This document shows positions 1 through 43,802 of a stretch of DNA of 43,865 bases, one piece after another; position 1 is the stretch's first letter, and every line of letters starts with the position of its first letter. The stretch lies in sequence record MN384978.1. One strand, 5' to 3'. Under the pieces are notes generated by a model. It was given only the letters and a program-made list of their open reading frames with translations, was not told the DNA's origin and did no database searches. This stretch comes from Escherichia phage vB_EcolP_P433.1. Both the position numbers and the translations under genes were made by a program.

Positions 1-885
1 TTACTTAGTTAATTCTTCTACTGCCTCAGAGATTAAAGGCCATGCCTCGTGTCCTTCACCGTAACCCAGTTTAACCAGTTCGCGGCGTGCCTTGTTAACT
101 GCTGTTTTCTTCGTTGCCTCTTCAGCGCTCAAACCCAAGCGGGCGTAGAAGCAAGAAGATTTGAACTGCGGAAGCATAGGCGCGGCTGCCTTCTTGCTTT
201 CGCGTGCACTGGTTAGCGCGGCGATGCGGTCATTAGCTGCCTGTAATTGCTCAGTAAGTGCCTTAATCTGTGCCAGTAGGCCAGCCATAGCGGCGTGCTC
301 AGTGTTAGCCGTGTTATCAAGTGGGGCGGCTTTTGGCGCTTCAGGCTTGCTTTCCTCTTCCCAAGGTGCTGATTCGTCGTTGTCCGGCTCGCTCACGGGT
401 GGCACTGCCTGCGGCTCTTGCGTTTCCTGTGATTCTGCGGCATCAGCCGCGTTCTCCTGCGGTTTTACTGTCTCTGCCTTAGATTGTACCATCTCGGCCT
501 TCGGCTCTTTCTTAGGCTCAATCAGGACGTTTACGGCGTTAGTATCCAGCTTGCCACCTGCGGCGAGTTCTGCGGCCTTCTCCATGATAATATCCTCATC
601 AGCGAAAGGAACAAGCGCCAACATTACACGCATCGCCACGCCTTTGAAGCGGTCATCACCCTCAAAGACACGCGCTACGCTCATCAGCTTGTAACATTGT
701 GCCTTCTTGATGCCGAATTCTGATTCTACATAAGCTAAAAAGTCTTTTTGACCTTCAAAGTCACCGCGTAGCTCATTCAGACAAGATCCAACCCGAAGAT
801 AAGAAGTGCCGATATTGTCTAAGTGTTGTTTGATCTCAGCGGTTGCAGCTTCACGAACAGAAACGAGGATGTTTTCAGTAGTCAT
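1..885 (-). CDS. hypothetical early protein (294 aa)
   Basis: Minus-strand ORF whose stop codon is window positions 1-3; ATG at 885 preceded by AGGTGA RBS; acidic and Pro/Glu-rich central region; no recognisable domain. Sits directly upstream of the RNA polymerase if the window is circular. Confidence 0.55.
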   Translation of the reverse strand: MTTENILVSVREAATAEIKQHLDNIGTSYLRVGSCLNELRGDFEGQKDFLAYVESEFGIKKAQCYKLMSVARVFEGDDRFKGVAMRVMLALVPFADEDIIMEKAAELAAGGKLDTNAVNVLIEPKKEPKAEMVQSKAETVKPQENAADAAESQETQEPQAVPPVSEPDNDESAPWEEESKPEAPKAAPLDNTANTEHAAMAGLLAQIKALTEQLQAANDRIAALTSARESKKAAAPMLPQFKSSCFYARLGLSAEEATKKTAVNKARRELVKLGYGEGHEAWPLISEAVEELTK

Positions 886-952
886 ATAGTCACCTATTGG
901 TTTATTGAGATAAAACTTAATCGGGCGCTAACAAGTAACGCCCTGTTAAGTC

Positions 953-975
953 TTCTCTTATAGTGTCAGATGAGT
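953..975 (-). promoter_or_regulatory. degenerate phage-promoter-like sequence (ACTCATCTGACACTATAAGAGAA)
   Basis: Keeps the GACACTATA core but has A at +1 and TCT at -12 to -10; probably weak or non-functional. Confidence 0.2.
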
Positions 976-1078
976 AGCTTGTATGTAGTTCCTAGCACTT
1001 CCTCACGAATCTGGGCAAATCGCAAGGAACACTTCAGGGTTACACCATCGGAAAAGATGAAGTTATATTGCTTTTCCA

Positions 1079-1414
1079 TCACTCTTCTTCCTCTTCTTCG
1101 TCTTCATACCAAACCACATCACTGTCATTTGGTACATCATTATAAAGCGCCTCATAAATGCGAGCCTGTAGGATCTTGGTTACATCCTTGGTGTCAGGGA
1201 TCAAGCCGGCATCATCGAATTCAATATCAATCCCGTCGGCCGCCATCACAGTAAAGATTTCATGATAATAGTGCGGTACGTTGTCATCTACAACCTCATG
1301 CAGCGCATCAGAATAATCATCATCTTCACGGATATGATCATACTGAATGCGCTCGTTGAACGCTTCAACAGTTGCAGCCAAAAGGTTGTAGTAAGCGTTA
1401 GCATTGCGTTCCAT
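1079..1414 (-). CDS. ocr: Ocr-like DNA-mimic anti-restriction protein (T7 gene 0.3 homolog, 111 aa)
   Basis: Very acidic protein ending in a poly-Glu run; the segment [44 protein letters not shown] closely matches T7 Ocr as remembered ([45 protein letters not shown]); GAGGA RBS before the ATG at 1414. Confidence 0.8.
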   Translation of the reverse strand: [111 protein letters not shown]

Positions 1415-1458
1415 GATTTAATCCTCATTAGTCAGTTAGTTGGGTTGCATTTAACAGT

Positions 1459-1488
1459 AGGTTACTACCTTGACGCATGACTGTCAAC
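1459..1488 (-). promoter_or_regulatory. possible host sigma70 promoter (TTGACA-N18-TAACCT)
   Basis: -35 hexamer TTGACA (reverse complement of 1483-1488) and a weak -10 about 18 bp downstream, upstream of ocr. Confidence 0.3.
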
Positions 1489-1558
1489 ACCGTATCTAGT
1501 ATCGCCCGATAAAGGCTAGGCAACGTGTTTATAGCGTTCTGCCTCTCGCTTGATGCTT

Positions 1559-1587
1559 AATGTAACCTTGTATGCCGTGGCTGTCAA
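1559..1587 (-). promoter_or_regulatory. host sigma70-type early promoter (TTGACA-N17-TACATT)
   Basis: Consensus -35 TTGACA (rc of 1582-1587), 17-bp spacer, -10 TACATT (rc of 1559-1564); minus strand, upstream of ocr. Confidence 0.5.
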
Positions 1588-1595
1588 TAGTTAAT

Positions 1596-1820
1596 TTAGA
1601 GATTTGTTGTGATTACTTCATCGTAATCATAATCTTCACTACCTAGATACTCGGTAATCACCTGATTGTCATACTCAGTTACTAAGGTAACGCGGTAATA
1701 ATCTCTGTCATAGTCCAGAAGAAAGGTTGTGAGGTCAGCGGTTACGCCAGCCTGTTCCATGTCTTCTAGTAGTCGGCGTGCTTCACTTCCTGAATTAAGA
1801 AAGATTTCGTGCTTATGCAT
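1596..1820 (-). CDS. hypothetical acidic early protein (74 aa)
   Basis: ORF with ATG at 1820 overlapping the stop of the upstream small ORF (ATGCATAA); acidic, Tyr/Asp-rich C-terminus. Confidence 0.5.
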   Translation of the reverse strand: MHKHEIFLNSGSEARRLLEDMEQAGVTADLTTFLLDYDRDYYRVTLVTEYDNQVITEYLGSEDYDYDEVITTNL

Positions 1821-1987
1821 TGGTTAGCTCCTTCATCAAGTCACGTTTCTGGTTAACTGTATCGGTCCAACCTTCGTTAAGAAATCGGTGATACAAGGCT
1901 AACTCATCATTCGTAAGTAATTCGTTGTTACGAATCATATAGCATAACAGAGTGAAGAGAACGGACAGTTCCCGGTTATTTAATGTC
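1813..1987 (-). CDS. small hypothetical early protein (57 aa, MTLNNRELSVLFTLLCYMIRNNELL...)
   Basis: Not in the ORF track (below its length cutoff); ATG at 1987 preceded by GAGG RBS; stop overlaps the start of the next gene; lies downstream of the sigma70-type promoter at 2108-2136. Confidence 0.35.
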
Positions 1988-2107
1988 ATGGTGATACCTC
2001 ATTTAATAAGTAATACCACGGCATACACAGGTTACACTAAGCAAATTGTTAAAGAGCAAGGTAACTTAGTTACCTACCGTTTGGCTATGTTGCCTCCCGA
2101 TGGCTGT

Positions 2108-2136
2108 AATGTACTGCGAGTTATTGCCTGTGTCAA
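2108..2136 (-). promoter_or_regulatory. host sigma70-type early promoter (TTGACA-N17-TACATT)
   Basis: -35 TTGACA (rc of 2131-2136), 17-bp spacer, -10 TACATT (rc of 2108-2113); same hexamers as the promoter at 1559-1587. Confidence 0.5.
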
Positions 2137-2202
2137 CACTAAATTTCACTAAGATAGATTATTTATGTGATACCTGTCACAACTGCTAGATAATCCTAGG
2201 TT

Positions 2203-2218
2203 GTCTAACATGTTAGAC
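2203..2218. repeat. perfect 16-bp palindrome GTCTAACATGTTAGAC
   Basis: Read directly; A-for-C variant of the GTCTCAC-NN-GTGAGAC palindrome family found at six other sites. Confidence 0.5.
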
Positions 2219-2359
2219 TAAGGAAAAGCAATAGATACAAGGCTAGGATAGGTTAGGCGGGCTAGGCTTCTGGTGTCCCTCCTACTGCATCTTATTACTA
2301 TTCTCTTTCTTTAGCGGTCTACCGACCGCGACCTATTCGCATCTTATAGCGTAGCTATG

Positions 2360-2650
2360 CAATCACTAAGATAAGGCACTAAGGCTTACTAAGGCACACT
2401 ACTAAGTCACTACTAAGGTAAGAACTAAGGCTTTAACTAAGGCAACCCACTAAGGTTAGCATAAGCTATCCCTCAGGTTTATACCAAGGATATACGAGCG
2501 CGGTGAGTGTAGCGTAACGTAGTGTAGCGAAACGAACAGATATCCCACCAACGTCCACCCTGTCAATACCTCATAAACGCCCTGAATGGCCTCAGGAGTG
2601 CACTAAGAGGCTTCACTAAGGCAATCACCTTGTCCATCACTAAGCCAACC
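2360..2650. repeat. array of at least 11 ACTAAG(G) heptamer repeats (CCTTAGT on the coding strand) in two clusters
   Basis: Copies read at about 2365, 2377, 2389, 2402, 2413, 2424, 2438, 2452, 2601, 2616 and 2640 in a non-coding region; resembles the CCTAAAG heptamer arrays next to T7 terminal repeats. Confidence 0.6.
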
Positions 2651-2844
2651 CTAGGCCTTCCTAGGCCGCCTACCGCGTTCCACCTTGCTAGTACATAGGA
2701 AAGCCTGGGCCTGTACCAGTTCACTAGTACACTCCCAAGGCCACCCTATGGGGGACATCCCGGCGAGGGCGAGGGCGAGACACCTCACACACGCCTATAT
2801 CAAAATTTTGACTTTGGTTAATCCTTGTACAACACTAAGGTTTC

Positions 2845-2940
2845 CTACACTTCAGTCTTAAGTGCACAAGCTATTGCTACAGGAAGAATACAGAAACCTA
2901 CACATACACCTAAGAGGAAACTAATCAATTCTACTAACAT
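2845..2940 (-). CDS. possible small hydrophobic peptide (31 aa, MLVELISFLLGVCVGFCILPVAIACALKTEV)
   Basis: ATG at 2940 preceded by AGGAGG at 5-nt spacing; single predicted transmembrane helix; starts 14 nt after the upstream small ORF. Confidence 0.3.
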   Translation of the reverse strand: MLVELISFLLGVCVGFCILPVAIACALKTEV

Positions 2941-2954
2941 GTTACCTCCTTTGA

Positions 2955-3110
2955 TTACACTAAGTCGAATCCCTTGGGTTGCTTCAGGTAAGCCTGTACA
3001 GTTCCACCAAGAACCTTCTGGCTAGCCAGTGCAGACTCTTCAGTGTCATGTATCTTCCTGAGTACCTTACGTTTGAATGGGCCGACTCCATAAGTATGAA
3101 TCCAAATCAT
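2955..3110 (-). CDS. possible small protein (51 aa, MIWIHTYGVGPFKRKVLRK...)
   Basis: ATG at 3110 preceded by AGGAGG at 4-nt spacing; just downstream of the last tailspike gene. Confidence 0.3.
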   Translation of the reverse strand: MIWIHTYGVGPFKRKVLRKIHDTEESALASQKVLGGTVQAYLKQPKGFDLV

Positions 3111-3134
3111 CAAACCTCCTTAGTACTACATCAA

Positions 3135-3152
3135 GGCAGACCGAAGCCTGCC
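3135..3152 (-). terminator. stem-loop GGCAGGC-UUCG-GUCUGCC 10 nt after the tailspike stop
   Basis: 7-bp stem with UUCG tetraloop on the minus-strand transcript; no strong U-tract, so terminator function is uncertain. Confidence 0.3.
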
Positions 3153-3161
3153 ATTTGTGTA

Positions 3162-4619
3162 TTAGTAAACCAACTTAACCCTGTACGCCACAGCCCTGTT
3201 ACCAGAAGTGCCGACACGAGAAATACGAAGTGTACCCTCAGGGTTTATCTTTGTGCTCACTGGCTCAGCCGCAGTACCATCGATTGATGCAATGGCAACA
3301 ATAGTTGCAGCAGCGAGTGCCTTGGTTCTCAAGCCTACATCGACAAACGTAAGACCATCAGGGATGATAGCAACACCTTCCTGTAAGTCAGGGTGGGTAG
3401 GGCTGTCAACACTTGTTAGCTTACACTGTGGCGTAGTCAGGGTTACGCCTACTACATGAGAGCAGCCACGCAAATGCAGTGAGCTATTCCCCATGTTGCT
3501 AATTAGCATCACGTTATTTGTACGAGTACCCAAGAAGTCACAGTCAGTCGCAGTGATACCCTCCACAGAATCGATAAGGAGATCACCCTGCTGGGCTGAG
3601 TCAATATCATTGAACTGGAATGTTACATTGGTCAGACGCATGTTCTTAGGTGCATTAGCCCCACGCTTAGTGACATACAAACCAAAGTAGCGGCTGTCAG
3701 AGATACAAGTACCATTGATACGCAGGTTGTCACAAGCGCCAACCACTTCGATGCACGCTTCACTGCCAGAGTGGTTTGAAGAGTAGTAACCGAAGTCAAT
3801 CTTCACATCTTTGGCATCCTCCAGATACAGCGCCTGTCCACCTGCAAGGTCACTCATGCAGGAGTTGAACCACGTCCAGCGAGTCCCTATGATCTCAATA
3901 GCCTTACGATTCTTGGCGCTGTTGCCACATGAGTAGACTAGCTCATTTGTGAACATCAAACCCTCTGTGACACTAGAAACACCTGCAGACACGTCTTCAC
4001 TTGCATGGATAGCAGTATAACAATCAGAGTACGTGTTGTTGAAGAAGTGAGAGTTGATCTGTCCACCACCAGAGAATACCGCATAGTTGCTTGCTGCAAA
4101 GCGGTTATTCTGGATAGTAAGCTCAGCTGATGATTTACCTTTCTCACAGAAGACGCACGCATCGTAGAATGCAAACGAGTTGTCGCGCACAGTGATTAGC
4201 GGGCCTTCGATACGGATTGCCATAGTGTTGTTGCTATCCTTTCCGCCACCTACGAAGTTCAGACCTTCGATAACAGTGAATGCCGCACGAGGTATCAGAG
4301 TGGAGCCATTGTGTGTCTTCAATGTTGCACCGTACTTACCATCACTATATAGCCGGATGGCAGATGTAATTATAAGGTCAGTTACAATGTATGGCGTGTC
4401 TTTAGGCGGAACATAGACACCAGCACCCATACCTCCTGCGCGATATGCTGCTTTGATAGCTGCACGGAACGCAGGTGTGTCATCGGTAACACCATCACCC
4501 TTTGCACCAAAATCGGTGACACTAATCTGCTCACTAAGCTTCTCAGGGAGCAGTCTCAGAATAGCTGCATCGTATAGCGCCTTGTATTTCACGAAGGCAG
4601 CACCTAGCTTTTGAATCAT
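3162..4619 (-). CDS. tailspike, probable depolymerase with pectate-lyase-like right-handed beta-helix (485 aa)
   Basis: N-terminal motif ISVTDFGAKGDGVTDDTPAFRAAIKAA typical of beta-helix glycanases; AGGAGGG RBS before the ATG at 4619; position at the genome right end as in SP6/K1-5-type phages. Confidence 0.75.
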   Translation of the reverse strand: MIQKLGAAFVKYKALYDAAILRLLPEKLSEQISVTDFGAKGDGVTDDTPAFRAAIKAAYRAGGMGAGVYVPPKDTPYIVTDLIITSAIRLYSDGKYGATLKTHNGSTLIPRAAFTVIEGLNFVGGGKDSNNTMAIRIEGPLITVRDNSFAFYDACVFCEKGKSSAELTIQNNRFAASNYAVFSGGGQINSHFFNNTYSDCYTAIHASEDVSAGVSSVTEGLMFTNELVYSCGNSAKNRKAIEIIGTRWTWFNSCMSDLAGGQALYLEDAKDVKIDFGYYSSNHSGSEACIEVVGACDNLRINGTCISDSRYFGLYVTKRGANAPKNMRLTNVTFQFNDIDSAQQGDLLIDSVEGITATDCDFLGTRTNNVMLISNMGNSSLHLRGCSHVVGVTLTTPQCKLTSVDSPTHPDLQEGVAIIPDGLTFVDVGLRTKALAAATIVAIASIDGTAAEPVSTKINPEGTLRISRVGTSGNRAVAYRVKLVY

Positions 4620-16501: not shown

Positions 16502-16517
16502 GTCTCACATGTGAGAC
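16502..16517. repeat. palindrome GTCTCAC-AT-GTGAGAC (18-bp perfect with flanks)
   Basis: Read directly; lies between the stop of the 981-aa gene and the RBS of the 1267-aa gene, flanked by the conserved GTTATACTCAAGG and CCTTTATGAAT boxes. Confidence 0.6.
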
Positions 16518-32713: not shown

Positions 32714-32729
32714 GTCTCACACGTGAGAC
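32714..32729. repeat. inverted repeat GTCTCAC-AC-GTGAGAC
   Basis: Read directly; begins 1 nt after the stop of the 72-aa gene and ends 16 bp before the promoter. Confidence 0.6.
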
Positions 32730-37221: not shown

Positions 37222-37237
37222 GTCTCACGTGTGAGAC
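37222..37237. repeat. inverted repeat GTCTCAC-GT-GTGAGAC (18-bp perfect palindrome 37221-37238)
   Basis: Read directly; starts about 10 nt after the stop of the 68-aa gene, preceded by GTCAAGG and followed by GCCTTTCAT. Confidence 0.6.
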
Positions 37238-38416: not shown

Positions 38417-38432
38417 GTCTCACGTGTGAGAC
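38417..38432. repeat. inverted repeat GTCTCAC-GT-GTGAGAC with extended arms
   Basis: Read directly; about 20 nt after the primase-helicase stop; the transcript could form a stem of about 11 bp. Confidence 0.6.
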
Positions 38433-38453: not shown

Positions 38454-40442
38454 TCAGAACTCACTTTCTTCATCGAAGCCGGTCTCTTCTATAGTGTCCG
38501 GTAAATCCGGTACTTCTTGTTGCCTTGCTTCCCCTGTATCAAATGACTTAGTACGGGCTTGTGGTTCCATTAAACGTCCGGTTTGAATGTCACCCTTAAG
38601 CATGACCTTGGTTCCAGTGTAGATACCTTGGTCGCGGTCTTTGACACATGAGATGTACGTGGTAGTCCTTTCATCAAGCGTTTCAGCTCTTGTATTACGC
38701 TCAATCCCCAAGGCGTAAGATGCCCAGAATCCGATAGCACCTGAGCCTCGGAAGTCAGAAAGGATAACTTCGCCACCTTCTTCGTGCTGGACTCGGTTTC
38801 CCGCAGGGCGAGTAAGGTGCGAGACAAGGAATATAGTAACTGGGTGTCTGTCTTTGATAGTACCAATCCGCTTGACGCATTCATCAAGTGCACCAACCTT
38901 CCCACCAAAAGCACGCTCATCTAATTTAATCCCCGTTAAGTTATCAATGATGATATTAGAAATACCCATAGCCTCAAACTCAAGGCAAGTCTGCTCTACC
39001 TTCTCCATTGAGTAGTCACCTTCTAGGTCAGCTACGAAGAGCTTCCCTGTATCAGCGACATAGTCAATGGCAGCATTAGCTTCTTCCTCAGTATAGTCGA
39101 ACACCTCGCGGTATCCATCTTCTTTCGGGTCGTTGGTTGGCGGTAGTTCAATACGCTTATCAATCCACTTGCCGATAAAAGCACGAGACACTTTGACCAT
39201 CGGGTCTTCTGTAGAAATAATGCCTACGGATTCACCGTGTTCTTCGATGAGGTGCTTAACCACTTCACGGAGGAACTCAGTCTTACCTACACCAGAGCCT
39301 GCGCCTACAATGATAAGCTGGTTCTTACGGATACCTAGCGTTACTTTGTTCAGCTTAGGCCAAGGCCATGACAGCCCTTGCTCTGGTCGTGCGGCCTTAA
39401 GTTTATCCCTTTGAGATGCAATAGATTTAATCTGGCTACCAAAGACTTCATCAGACGACTTGGCATTAAACCACGCATCTACAAATTCTTTAGCCTTGCC
39501 AGCCATCAATGCCTTATTGGCATCTTTGCACCCAGAAGGGTACTCAAGAATATAGGATTTGCCGGGAAAGAGGCGAGCCGCTTGTTGGTTCTGCTTCTGC
39601 CCTACTTCATCCCCATCGAAGCCCCAAATAATCTTCTTGAATTGGGCGATGTGTTCACGGTTCTGCACAATCTCTTCAAGGCAAGATTCACCCTTATTAA
39701 CAGACCATACGTGGTAGGGCTGGCCTTCCCACTTAGTGCCTTTGGCAGAATCAAGGAGCATCTGTTGTGCTGCTAGTGCATCAAGCTCTCCGCCTACAAT
39801 AAGCAAGCAATCCTTCCGTCTTCCCTTGTCTAACACGTGAGACAAAGTATTCATACCGAAAAGATCTTGCATACCAAAGAGCTTACCTAGGTGACCAAAC
39901 TTAAAGTCTTTAGGTAAGGTACGGCACTTAGCGCCTACTAGCTCACCTCTCTCGAAGCGTGGATAGTAATGCCGTGAGACTCTACCCTCTTCATCGTGTC
40001 CGACACGTACATCATACAATGCGCAAATGTCGCCGCGAATGTGTCGGGAAACAAGATTCTTACGCTTAAGCGTGAGGAACCATTCAACATCAAGTTTCCA
40101 CTCTGCTTCTTGGTCTGCCCTTTCTTGCTCATTCATGACCTCCCAACGGTCTTTCATACGCATACCACCAAGTGCGATGGCTCGCAGCTTAGGGTCGCTT
40201 ATCTTCCCTTCCCTCTCCATCTCTTTGAATTGAGAAGGTGTGTATTTTATGTTGCCAGTAATAGGCAACTCGGTGATCTCGATACCGCCGTCTGGCTTGT
40301 GGTAGTATGGCTTGCCATTATCATGGAAGTGACCACGGTTACAATAGCCAGCACCATCATCAAATATCATGAGATGGTTGCCGGATTTATCGTGTCCATT
40401 CTTCTGGCAAGCAGGGCACGGGATGTTATTAATAATAGCCAT
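38454..40442 (-). CDS. DNA primase-helicase, T7 gp4-like (662 aa)
   Basis: N-terminal zinc ribbon CPACQ...YCNRGHF; helicase Walker A GAGSGVGKTEF; acidic C-terminal tail ending in Phe (...TGFDEESEF) as in T7 gp4. Confidence 0.9.
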   Translation of the reverse strand: MAIINNIPCPACQKNGHDKSGNHLMIFDDGAGYCNRGHFHDNGKPYYHKPDGGIEITELPITGNIKYTPSQFKEMEREGKISDPKLRAIALGGMRMKDRWEVMNEQERADQEAEWKLDVEWFLTLKRKNLVSRHIRGDICALYDVRVGHDEEGRVSRHYYPRFERGELVGAKCRTLPKDFKFGHLGKLFGMQDLFGMNTLSHVLDKGRRKDCLLIVGGELDALAAQQMLLDSAKGTKWEGQPYHVWSVNKGESCLEEIVQNREHIAQFKKIIWGFDGDEVGQKQNQQAARLFPGKSYILEYPSGCKDANKALMAGKAKEFVDAWFNAKSSDEVFGSQIKSIASQRDKLKAARPEQGLSWPWPKLNKVTLGIRKNQLIIVGAGSGVGKTEFLREVVKHLIEEHGESVGIISTEDPMVKVSRAFIGKWIDKRIELPPTNDPKEDGYREVFDYTEEEANAAIDYVADTGKLFVADLEGDYSMEKVEQTCLEFEAMGISNIIIDNLTGIKLDERAFGGKVGALDECVKRIGTIKDRHPVTIFLVSHLTRPAGNRVQHEEGGEVILSDFRGSGAIGFWASYALGIERNTRAETLDERTTTYISCVKDRDQGIYTGTKVMLKGDIQTGRLMEPQARTKSFDTGEARQQEVPDLPDTIEETGFDEESEF
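38484..38506 (-). promoter_or_regulatory. phage RNAP promoter ATTTACCGGACACTATAGAAGAG inside the 3' end of the primase-helicase gene
   Basis: CCG sub-class at -12 to -10; lies within the last codons of the helicase ORF. Confidence 0.6.
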
Positions 40443-40663: not shown

Positions 40664-40792
40664 TTAGAACTCCCACGCTGCGCGTTTAGATGCACGGTCA
40701 CGGACAGGTTTATTCAGCTTCTTGCCTTTCTTCTGCCCTTCTTCCATGTCAAAACGGTTAGCTTTACGGGTCATCTTCTCAAAGTTACGCAT
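40664..40792 (-). CDS. gp1.1-like small basic protein (42 aa, MRNFEKMTRKANRF...)
   Basis: Not in the ORF track; GGAGA RBS before the ATG at 40792; the N-terminus MRNFEKMT and the length match T7 gene 1.1 product as remembered. Confidence 0.55.
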   Translation of the reverse strand: MRNFEKMTRKANRFDMEEGQKKGKKLNKPVRDRASKRAAWEF

Positions 40793-40817: not shown

Positions 40818-40840
40818 CTTATCTATACTGTCCGGTAAAT
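40818..40840 (-). promoter_or_regulatory. phage RNAP promoter variant ATTTACCGGACAGTATAGATAAG
   Basis: G instead of C at -5 and a divergent initiation region; preceded 5 bp upstream by the palindrome at 40846-40861. Confidence 0.55.
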
Positions 40841-40845
40841 ACGAA

Positions 40846-40861
40846 GTCTCACATGTGAGAC
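40846..40861. repeat. inverted repeat GTCTCAC-AT-GTGAGAC
   Basis: Read directly; abuts the upstream edge of the promoter at 40818-40840. Confidence 0.6.
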
Positions 40862-41004: not shown

Positions 41005-41027
41005 TTCTCCTATAGTGTCCGGTAAAT
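41005..41027 (-). promoter_or_regulatory. phage RNAP promoter ATTTACCGGACACTATAGGAGAA
   Basis: First phage promoter downstream of the polymerase gene; CCG sub-class. Confidence 0.7.
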
Positions 41028-41031
41028 ATGA

Positions 41032-41047
41032 GTCTCACATGTGAGAC
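41032..41047. repeat. inverted repeat GTCTCAC-AT-GTGAGAC
   Basis: Read directly; about 75 nt after the polymerase stop and 4 bp upstream of the promoter at 41005-41027. Confidence 0.6.
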
Positions 41048-41119: not shown

Positions 41120-43802
41120 TTATGCAAAGCAATAGTCAGAAACTAAGATCTCTTCAAGGTTAAACTCCCCTTGCTCCGGCACTTGGATACCAGTATCCAC
41201 TAACCAGCGCTCTTCGTGCTCATCTAACAGGCTTTGCAGGGCATTACGTCCTTGGTACATTTTCACCATTTCTGCCCTTAAGCTATCCCGCAGGTCTGCG
41301 GTGCGGCCTGCATGAGTGCCAAAAGAGTCATGAATAACTGCAATGGATGTTATACCTTTATCCACGAGGTCACATACAGTCAGGATAAGGTGGCTAGCAT
41401 CATGACCATGAACAAAATTAGGAGCCGCTGCACCCATCATCGCCGTTTCATCAACTACGTCTGTTTCAATCTGGAGACTCATCTTGATTTCACCCATCAA
41501 GCAAGTTGATACGCGAAGCATATCGGTTGCCATTATCTTTTGTTGCAAGATGAAGCCAGTAGGCAAGGTGTATTCTAACCCTTCATTTCTTTTAGCTGCG
41601 AATCGTGCTAGTTGGCGAATCATTCTCATCGCCACTATAGGTGCTTTAACAACCTCAGAGATTGAAGGCCAGATTAAAGCCGTCATATAATTATAGGCCG
41701 CACCAGTAGTTAAGTAGTCTTTGCGGTCATTATCAAAAGGGTGCACAGGATTCGCCGTCCGCCCTTCTGCAATAGCTCTTTGCGCCTCTTTTTCTTCCAA
41801 ATCAACGATATAATCAATCACAGACTCACGGCAGGTTAAGCGGGTGGAACCATAAGGCAAGGTCATTACGGGCTTTTTGGTTAAGCCACGAGTGATACCT
41901 ATCATATCCCATGCGCTAGCCATGCTACGCAGTTCTGCTCCTGTAAGTGTCACGCTTCCAGAGGTGAAAGTCTCTGCATCATCTGCATTCATGTAAGCGT
42001 AATTCTTCTGGATAACCACTTGCGCCACCGCCCCATAAATATCTTGCGGTGAGTCTGACGGCTTAAGGTTTACCGCCTTAGCGCCTACTTCATCACGTAG
42101 CATCGCACTATAATGCTGAATACCAGAACAACTACCGTCTTGGTGTACTGGTAAGTGCGTCATGAATTGGTCTTGTGTACCTTCATCCAAAGCATCAAGG
42201 TAACGAGCATACTCAAAGCACCACGCAAGGAATCCATAAGGAGAATCAGCATTTACCCATTGAGTAAAAGTCAGCGGGTCGGCTGCAATATCGCGGCACA
42301 TATCTTGAAATTCGCCATCCAGCACATTAGCGGTGCGCACGTCAAAAGTTTTCTTATCCCAACCCCAGTTATTCGCCCCGTTCACCAAAAACCACTTAAG
42401 CGCCTCAGCGCTGTTTATAGTCTGCCCTTCGGTAAACCGTAGTAGCGCCTTGCCTAAGTCATTTGATTGCGGCGAGAGTGTGCTAGATTGCGCGTATACA
42501 CGGCTGCGGCTGTCCAGTGCATATACGAAGTAAATAGCGTTGAAGTGGCTGTATTTACGGGCCTGCCCGACCATGCGAACGGTTGCCGCCGATTTACTGC
42601 CGCGCTTAGTCTCTGCGGTGTACAGCTTGGTGCATTCACCTTTCCAGTTGATAAATGCGTGCCATTGTTCTGGGGTTAGCATTTCTTTTAGTTCACGACC
42701 GCGCAGGTGTTGGAACTCAAGAGGAACAGGATTAGCGGGCTTGTTCTCCCGGTCGATGAGTGGTTTAAAGGAGGGCACACCATAACCAAGATCGAGGCGG
42801 ATAACATCTTCAACAACCTGCAACACTTCCTTATTAACCTGCCACTTGGTCGCCTGCAAAGCGTTAACAGCCTTGTAAACCGCTGGCATTTGCTTTTTGG
42901 TTAGCTTGCGGACGTGCTCGCGGTTGCCTTTAACCAGACGGATACGGCTTGCCACTTTCTCAGTGTGAAAACCTCCATTAAAAGGGGACACCCAAGGGCG
43001 CGGAGGGATAACGCAAGGTGCATAGGCTGGACTAAGCTGCGCTACGTGCTCTTTGAAGGCCGTTATCCACTCCCCAACGTGTTCACTAGTCTGTAAGTAG
43101 TAAACGCCATGTTTGCCGCCGTTAGTGCGCAAGGTGCGGAGGAAAACAGGCTGCCCGTTGAAGAATACACTATTTTCCAAGATTTCTAGCAAGGTCATGC
43201 CTATTTGCAGCAAGGTATCCTTAGGCCATGCCTCCCAGCGGGAGAAATCAGCGTCACGGTCAGATACAGACTTCTCAGCCACAACTGCTACGTTGTGCGC
43301 ATGGCGATAGGATTTAGTCTTGCTTGCCTTAAGTGACTTCTTAACCTTCTCGAAGTATTTGGCGGCGTGACCTTCCAGCTTGCTAAATCGCACTTGGTCT
43401 TCAATGCGGTCAGCTACATTCATGGCTATGGCTTGCAAGGTTACATCTGTGTTCAACATATCCATGACAATCTTCATCGTGATATAGGCTGCCACTTCAT
43501 TTTCTACGCAGTTAATGAAAGCTAATGCACGAGGTGCACGGCCTCTTTTACCTTCATACTCTTCCTTGTATGCCTGAATACCTTCAGCCATTGGCGCGAT
43601 TAACTCGGATAATAAGCGGCGATTCCAAGCCGTATCCGATTCGTTACCGGATGCAATTTGGCGCTGTTGGTCTGCTTCAAAGCGACGAATACCGCCGTTA
43701 AACATTTCTTCTTCAAGCTGAAGCTGGATAGCGTGTAGGTCTAATACCGCCGTTAAACATTTCTTCTTCAAGCTGAAGCTGGATAGCGTGTAGGTCTTGC
43801 AT
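41120..43802 (-). CDS. single-subunit DNA-dependent RNA polymerase, SP6-type; 5' end disrupted by a 55-bp tandem duplication
   Basis: Near-identity over long stretches to SP6 RNA polymerase as remembered (e.g. [49 protein letters not shown]-terminus ...DYCFA). The RBS-preceded ATG at 43802 encodes [20 protein letters not shown] and then frameshifts; the intact frame 41120-43771 begins only at a TTG. Confidence 0.85.
43688..43797. repeat. perfect direct tandem duplication, 2 x 55 bp (43688-43742 and 43743-43797)
   Basis: Both units read AATACCGCCGTTAAACATTTCTTCTTCAAGCTGAAGCTGGATAGCGTGTAGGTCT; the bases flanking each unit differ, so the repeat is exactly 55 bp. Confidence 0.9.

Follow-up and report, generated by a model that had tools for sequence, protein, structure and literature searches.

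The stretch of DNA analysed here (hereafter the window) is the 43,865-nucleotide (nt) sequence record MN384978.1 of Escherichia phage vB_EcolP_P433.1, and its early region contains, at 1079..1414, a 111-amino-acid (aa) open reading frame (ORF) homologous to T7 gene 0.3, or ocr. All long ORFs of the window are on the minus strand, as are the genes, promoters, and leaders described below, and all positions are those of the window. The order along this strand is P1 (2108..2136), a gp1-like gene, a gp2-like gene, P2 (1559..1587), ocr, a gp4-like gene, a hairpin, a gp6-like gene, and the RNA polymerase gene, where P1 and P2 are candidate sigma-70 promoters located upstream of the gp1-like gene and about 145 nt upstream of ocr, respectively. 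The RNA polymerase gene is followed by two phage promoters, a gp1.1-like ORF, a 72-aa ORF, and the primase/helicase gene. This gene order corresponds to gp1-gp7 of phage K1-5 minus gp5, is near to the gp3-gp8 order of SP6, and is the same in K1-5, K1E, CrRp3, PSK8, and AAPEc6. The nearest database records, which are K1-5/K1E-like members of Vectrevirus, were about 91-92% identical to the window at the nucleotide level over 25 kb according to megablast, and identity to relatives was about 85-89% in the early region. By these similarities the phage is a K1-5/K1E-like, SP6-group podovirus of the genus Vectrevirus (Autographiviridae, Molineuxvirinae). Since the two ends of the window are contiguous in relatives, the window represents the whole genome in reverse orientation and circularly permuted, with the physical left genome end near 2780, a position that aligns with position 1 of K1-5. 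We consider it very probable that the locus represents an ordinary early (class I) region for such a phage, equipped with an Ocr anti-restriction gene as in the SP6 group. Homology, charge conservation, synteny, promoter conservation, discordance of the ocr allele, its breakpoints, and target sites in the genome directly support this reading.

The 111-aa ORF had been proposed to encode an Ocr homologue in a first-pass annotation made from the sequence alone, and protein searches bore this out with significant similarity in Pfam, PHROG, and the T7 structures. It matched Pfam PF08684 'DNA mimic ocr' with an E-value of 2.1e-32 and 112 bits (cutoff, 25 bits) over profile positions 5-97 of 101, and PHROG 2568 'ocr-like anti-restriction' with an E-value of 2e-52. 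A phmmer comparison with the T7 gp0.3 structures 1s7z and 2y7c gave an E-value of about 5e-28, residues 7-110 being aligned with residues 7-110 of 1s7z, and the protein was 50% identical to T7 Ocr and colinear with it along its whole length. The Ocr-like charge pattern that had been expected was also found. With 32 acidic (D+E) and 6 basic (K+R) residues of 111, the protein has a net charge of -26, and it is acidic at 27 of the 34 acidic positions of T7 Ocr, including all of E59, D62, E64, E66, and D67, which fall in the acidic patch (residues 59-67) found critical by mutagenesis of T7 Ocr (PMC3439906). The central segment I53-F54-x-V56-M57-A58 is kept in all Ocr homologues compared, in which F54 is invariant, and the ocr ATG is preceded, at a distance of 8 nt, by the ribosome-binding site GAGGA. 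T7 Ocr (PDB 1S7Z) belongs to the same Pfam family, and its gene is likewise one of the early genes that follow host promoters at the leading end of the genome; however, the sequence of the N-terminal helix differs between the two proteins, the stretch preceding the acidic tail has 6 residues fewer in the window, and ocr is the third early gene with its own promoter in the window, whereas it is the first early gene in T7.

Transcription from P1 and P2, dimerisation of Ocr, and anti-restriction activity would be expected by analogy with T7. As the left genome end enters the cell, the sigma-70 RNA polymerase of the host would start at P1 (2136..2108) and P2 (1587..1559) and transcribe the gp1-like, gp2-like, ocr, gp4-like, and gp6-like genes and the phage RNA polymerase gene. 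Going by its homology to T7 gp0.3, Ocr is an acidic helical protein that would dimerise and mimic about 24 bp of bent B-form DNA, and the accumulated dimer would block type I restriction-modification (R-M) and BREX while most of the genome has yet to be exposed. The genome contains 7 EcoKI, 11 EcoBI, 4 EcoAI, 7 EcoR124I, and 43 GGTAAG sites, counted with motifs that we take to be the type I and BREX target sites, and Ocr would protect the unmodified genome with its EcoKI, EcoBI, and GGTAAG sites. One could instead suppose that the main role of this Ocr homologue is inhibition of BREX, or binding of host RNA polymerase in aid of host transcription shutoff. T7 Ocr reportedly inhibits BREX, GGTAAG sites in the genome number 43 as compared with 7 for EcoKI, and E. 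coli RNA polymerase bound by T7 Ocr was among the structure matches (PDB 6r9b/6r9g). We regard such a different main role as unlikely, since these activities are not mutually exclusive, all of them resting on the same DNA mimicry, and no position of the acidic patch required for binding EcoKI has been lost.

The two sites of the form TTGACA-N17-TACATT were found where the first-pass annotation had placed them, at 2108-2136 and 1559-1587. Each matches the consensus at 10 of 12 positions with a 17-nt spacer, and both are on the gene strand and face the early genes. The exact pattern occurred twice as compared with 0.36 expected, and two occurrences were reached in 6 of 100 shuffled sequences. 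Since these statistics alone are weak, the real support comes from conservation, as both promoters are kept at homologous positions in six relatives, K1-5, PSK8, CrRp3, K1E (KY435490), AAPEc6, and SP6. In the seven SP6-like phages including SP6, the -35 hexamer of P1 and an upstream TTAGTG are invariant, the -10 hexamer is TAC(A/T)(T/A)T, and the spacer varies. P2 is nearly invariant, spacer included, in K1-5, PSK8, CrRp3, K1E (KY435490), and AAPEc6, and its variant in SP6 is TTGACT-N18-TACATT. A third promoter-like site at 1487..1459 (TTGACA-N17-TAACCT) had no homologous counterpart in any relative and was treated as a chance occurrence.

Conservation of P2 over its full length, together with its position at the upstream edge of the variable ocr cassette described below, would also suit sites that are inactive as promoters and conserved for another reason, for example as recombination anchors or as signals for DNA entry or packaging, and a generic sigma-70 scan of 800-3200 found 4 sites where 5.0 were expected, which is not above chance. 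We nevertheless consider this explanation very improbable, because the hexamers of P1 are kept while its spacer varies, as expected of a promoter, and because both sites, oriented towards the early genes with 17-nt spacing and A/T-rich sequence upstream, occupy the place of A1-A3 in T7. Moreover, an SP6-type phage must rely on the polymerase of its host for expression of the phage polymerase gene.

The outcome of that scan is one of several results that weigh against reading the locus as a normal early region with a functional Ocr gene. Identity to the characterised T7 Ocr is only about 50%. A single-sequence AlphaFold2 model of Ocr, with three long helices, was of low confidence (pLDDT 61), and although the top three Foldseek matches of this model in PDB were T7 Ocr chains, their TM scores were 0.41-0.46. 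Furthermore, neither the ocr leader (1405-1555; z=-0.09) nor the gp1 leader (1980-2102; z=-1.35) folded better than shuffled sequences. The Foldseek matches of so poor a model would largely reflect sequence, and it is on the sequence that the fold assignment is based; with 50% identity over the full length to the solved T7 Ocr structure, an Ocr fold is probable. In view of the leader folds, structured leaders ahead of ocr and gp1, of the RNase III type or otherwise, were dropped from consideration, and the lack of significant leader RNA structure leaves processing by RNase III in the T7 style unsupported here.

The 42-aa gp1.1-like peptide expected after the polymerase gene was confirmed at 40664..40792, outside the 1079-2136 interval under which the first-pass annotation had listed it. 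It is a basic protein, with 14 lysine and arginine residues out of 42, and it matched Pfam PF08200 Phage_1_1 with an E-value of 8.2e-16 and 58.6 bits (cutoff, 21 bits). The peptide was 56% identical to T7 gp1.1 and 74% identical to the C-terminal 42 aa of SP6p09, identity within Vectrevirus was 95-100%, and gp1.1 homologues were present in 272 phage records. The ORF is the first gene after that of the RNA polymerase, about 330 nt past the polymerase stop codon, and two promoters for the phage RNA polymerase stand between the two genes, ATTTACCGGACACTATAG at 41010..41027 and, directly upstream of the gp1.1-like gene, ATTTACCGGACAGTATAG at 40823..40840. Ten sites of this kind were found in the genome, compared to 0.04 expected. 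The pair parallels phi1.1A and phi1.1B of T7, in which gp1.1 is also 42 aa long and the first gene after the RNA polymerase gene, with two phage promoters before it. Like its T7 counterpart, this small, basic, conserved protein would be produced from the two phage promoters immediately behind the polymerase gene. In the window it is followed by an SP6-group-specific ORF of 72 aa instead of a homologue of gp1.2 (dGTPase inhibitor).

The first-pass annotation had taken Ocr to be undescribed for SP6 itself and these genes and promoters as T7-type functions in an otherwise SP6-type genome, and neither view was upheld. SP6 gp5 (NP_853565.1) is ocr-like according to RefSeq, matches the Pfam ocr family with an E-value of 2.8e-64, and is 77% identical to T7 Ocr, although it is only 50% identical to the Ocr of the window, with which it shares the family, the genomic slot, and a close backbone. 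SP6 has a gp1.1 homologue as well (SP6p09), which RefSeq also annotates, and both promoters. Because SP6 and every Vectrevirus examined share these features, the early region is neither a peculiar mosaic nor a T7-like graft. In line with these comparisons, Ocr, gp1.1 homologues, and host-type early promoters are already known and standard in SP6-, K1-5-, and K1E-like phages, and Ocr and 1.1 protein have been listed for Vectrevirus-type phages (PMC5582158, PMC13005862). The exact Ocr protein is itself in GenBank under phage vB_EcolP_P433.1 (QFR58598.1), where its name, 'Orc protein', is an annotation error. The label 'protein kinase' given to ocr homologues in several Vectrevirus records, including MG775042.2, MG004687.1, and OR424384.1, is likewise erroneous.

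The closest Ocr proteins, with 90-94% amino acid identity to that of the window, were found in K1-5 (YP_654101.1), K1E (NC_007637), PSK8, and CrRp3, which also share the slot between gp2 and gp4, P2 upstream, and a short poly-Glu tail. The K1-5-type Ocr differs from that of the window by a few substitutions, while the P2-ocr leader between conserved blocks is 98 nt in the window and about 310 nt in K1-5, and the gp5 homologue of K1-5 is absent from the window. The matrix of Ocr identities separated two classes that are 45-51% identical to each other. Class A, with the N-terminus MERNANAYY..., comprises the proteins of the window, K1-5, PSK8, and CrRp3 (85-93% mutually identical), together with those of the reference K1E (93% identical to the window by tblastn), EcoDS1, K1F, and SH3. 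Class B, with the N-terminus MAMSNMTY..., comprises those of T7 and SP6 and those of AAPEc6 and KY435490, the latter two being 60-65% identical to T7 and SP6. Both classes were found in Molineuxvirinae and in Studiervirinae. The class-A gp0.3 proteins of the Kayfunavirus phages EcoDS1, K1F, and SH3 (Studiervirinae) are 82-84% identical to the Ocr of the window at the amino acid level and 75-77% at the nucleotide level, in spite of an unrelated backbone, as RNA polymerase identity is 34% between the window and T7 or Kayfunavirus and 85% between the window and SP6. As the Ocr matrix and the RNA polymerase matrix disagree, the ocr allele tree is discordant with the genome backbone.

The limits of the exchanged segment were located by blastn against the class-B Vectrevirus genomes KY435490 and AAPEc6, in which similarity to the window ends at 1549, just downstream of the P2 -10 hexamer, and resumes at 1103/1099, within the codons of the poly-Glu tail. 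The variable cassette at 1104..1548 accordingly comprises the leader and most of the ocr ORF, which are replaced in class-B Vectrevirus, and similarity to Kayfunavirus at the nucleotide level is limited to the ocr ORF itself (from 1414 to 1082-1108). From these alignments, ocr acts as an exchangeable cassette flanked by conserved sequence, with P2 on one side and the poly-Glu tail and gp4 on the other. All 28 database matches at 90-95% Ocr identity came from Vectrevirus-size genomes of 43.7-46.1 kb, whereas the matches listed at 83-86% identity came from T7-like genomes of 38-41 kb. The class-A Ocr of Vectrevirus thus constitutes its own subgroup at 90-94%, apart from a Studiervirinae subgroup at roughly 80-86%, and since the subgroups separate by the type of genome that carries them, the exchange is old rather than recent and concerns ocr alone. 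Of the mosaic early region suggested in the first-pass annotation, the part that stands is therefore ocr as an exchangeable cassette, while the promoters and gp1.1 follow the SP6-group backbone. A recent graft of T7-derived modules (the ocr gene, the host promoters, and gp1.1) onto an SP6-type backbone normally devoid of them is highly improbable, and is already refuted for the promoters and gp1.1: the resemblance to Kayfunavirus Ocr across backbones far less alike, confined to the ocr ORF, is what such a graft would leave, but ocr, gp1.1, and both promoters are found at matching locations in every one of SP6, K1-5, K1E, CrRp3, PSK8, and AAPEc6, and the separate Vectrevirus subgroup makes any transfer an old one, of ocr alone.

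Two records that both bear the name 'Escherichia phage K1E' differ in ocr class. In K1E NC_007637.1 (2346-2654) the gene is of class A, with 93% identity to the window, and in K1E KY435490.1 (1927-2283) it is of class B, with 49% identity, which indicates that ocr is polymorphic between very close isolates or stocks. Another variation was observed in K1F gp0.3 (locus 1114-1623) and SH3 gp2 (locus 950-1459), which are 169 aa long because a class-A Ocr domain is extended at its C-terminus by about 59 aa; EcoDS1, T7, and all SP6-like phages compared lack this extension.

Among the early-region proteins, T7 counterparts were limited to ocr and gp1.1, and the other small proteins have SP6 homologues; no homologues of the gp1-, gp2-, gp4-like, 294-aa, and 72-aa proteins were found in the early regions of T7, EcoDS1, K1F, and SH3. 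The gp1-like ORF (1813..1989; 58 aa) matched phrog_9275 (E=2e-39), and its product was 67% identical to SP6 gp3. The gp2-like ORF (1596..1820; 74 aa; phrog_6403, E=3e-24) encodes an acidic protein, with 17 acidic compared to 5 basic residues, whose SP6 counterpart is just 24% identical. The gene comes immediately before P2 and ocr, and its product may likewise serve as a small mimic or counter-defence protein. A pentatricopeptide-repeat (PPR) similarity of the gp2-like protein was rejected, as the matches to designer PPR proteins in PDB represent one 22-residue stretch summed over repeats, none of them singly significant, and the score against Pfam PPR_2 was 13 bits, below the cutoff of 30. 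The gp4-like ORF (966..1079; 37 aa) matched phrog_11746 (E=5e-29) from residue 2 of the listed GTG-started ORF onwards; its ATG shares one base with the TGA stop codon of ocr (TGATG), and its product is 74% identical to the SP6 counterpart. A weak GC-rich hairpin (GGGCG...CGCCC; 943..923, minus strand) with a poor T-tail lies between the gp4-like gene and the gene for the 294-aa protein, where K1-5 and SP6 hold an extra small gene (gp5/gp6), and may serve for processing or as a weak terminator.

The gp6-like ORF (1..885; 294 aa; phrog_4571, E=7e-130), whose product is 66% identical to SP6 gp7, comes directly before the RNA polymerase gene in the circularised window. No PDB relative and no Pfam family were found for this protein, which fills the slot where T7 has the gp0.7 kinase and has conserved N- and C-terminal parts linked by an acidic low-complexity stretch rich in Pro, Glu, and Ala. 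The single-subunit RNA polymerase gene itself (41120..43802) is frameshifted in the deposited sequence after codon 21 by a perfect 55-nt tandem duplication at 43688-43797, in which 43688-43742 is identical to 43743-43797. Relatives have one copy of the 55-nt unit, and deletion of one copy restored an ORF of 875 aa that was 85% identical to SP6 RNA polymerase and 34% identical to T7 RNA polymerase. Because 55 is a common k-mer length of assemblers, an artefact of assembly or circularisation at k=55 is likely. The duplication is thus probably an error of the deposited genome, whose length without the artefactual copy would probably be 43,810 bp.

Two kinds of short repeated sequences were also observed. 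Eight perfect or near-perfect 16-nt palindromes of the form GTCT(C/A)AC(A/G)(T/C)GT(G/T)AGAC, for which 0.01 would be expected by chance, are located at 2203-2218, 16502-16517, 32714-32729, 37222-37237, 38417-38432, 39828-39843, 40846-40861, and 41032-41047. Three of them lie 4-15 nt upstream of promoters for the phage RNA polymerase (41027, 40840, 32698), and one, also kept in KY435490 and AAPEc6, precedes the host promoter P1 by about 67 nt. The palindrome might form a hairpin for processing or termination, or else bind a protein. The non-coding sequence by the genome end (2340-2660) contains arrays of short direct repeats of the (C)ACTAAGG type, which recall the short repeat arrays flanking the terminal repeat of T7.

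These results correct the premise that SP6 lacks Ocr, point to a probable error of assembly within the RNA polymerase gene as deposited, and document ocr as a polymorphic, exchangeable cassette with defined breakpoints. Both Ocr classes retain F54, the position at which mutation allows T7 Ocr to evade PARIS. The polymorphism of ocr is relevant to host-range prediction for therapeutic K1-type phages against strains with type I R-M, BREX, or PARIS. Ocr is a counter-defence protein and also a trigger of PARIS, Ronin, and EcoR22I (bioRxiv 10.1101/2023.04.06.535777), so that turnover of its alleles could be favoured, a source of selection that we infer from this double role. We offer only tentatively, and as a doubtful proposal, that the two classes are kept as a swappable cassette because they differ in the defences that they block or in the Ocr-sensing abortive systems (PARIS, Ronin, EcoR22I) that they trigger; the sequence comparisons address the discordance and the breakpoints rather than a functional difference between the classes. 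If the proposal is true, replacement of the ocr allele would be an escape route from anti-anti-restriction immunity.

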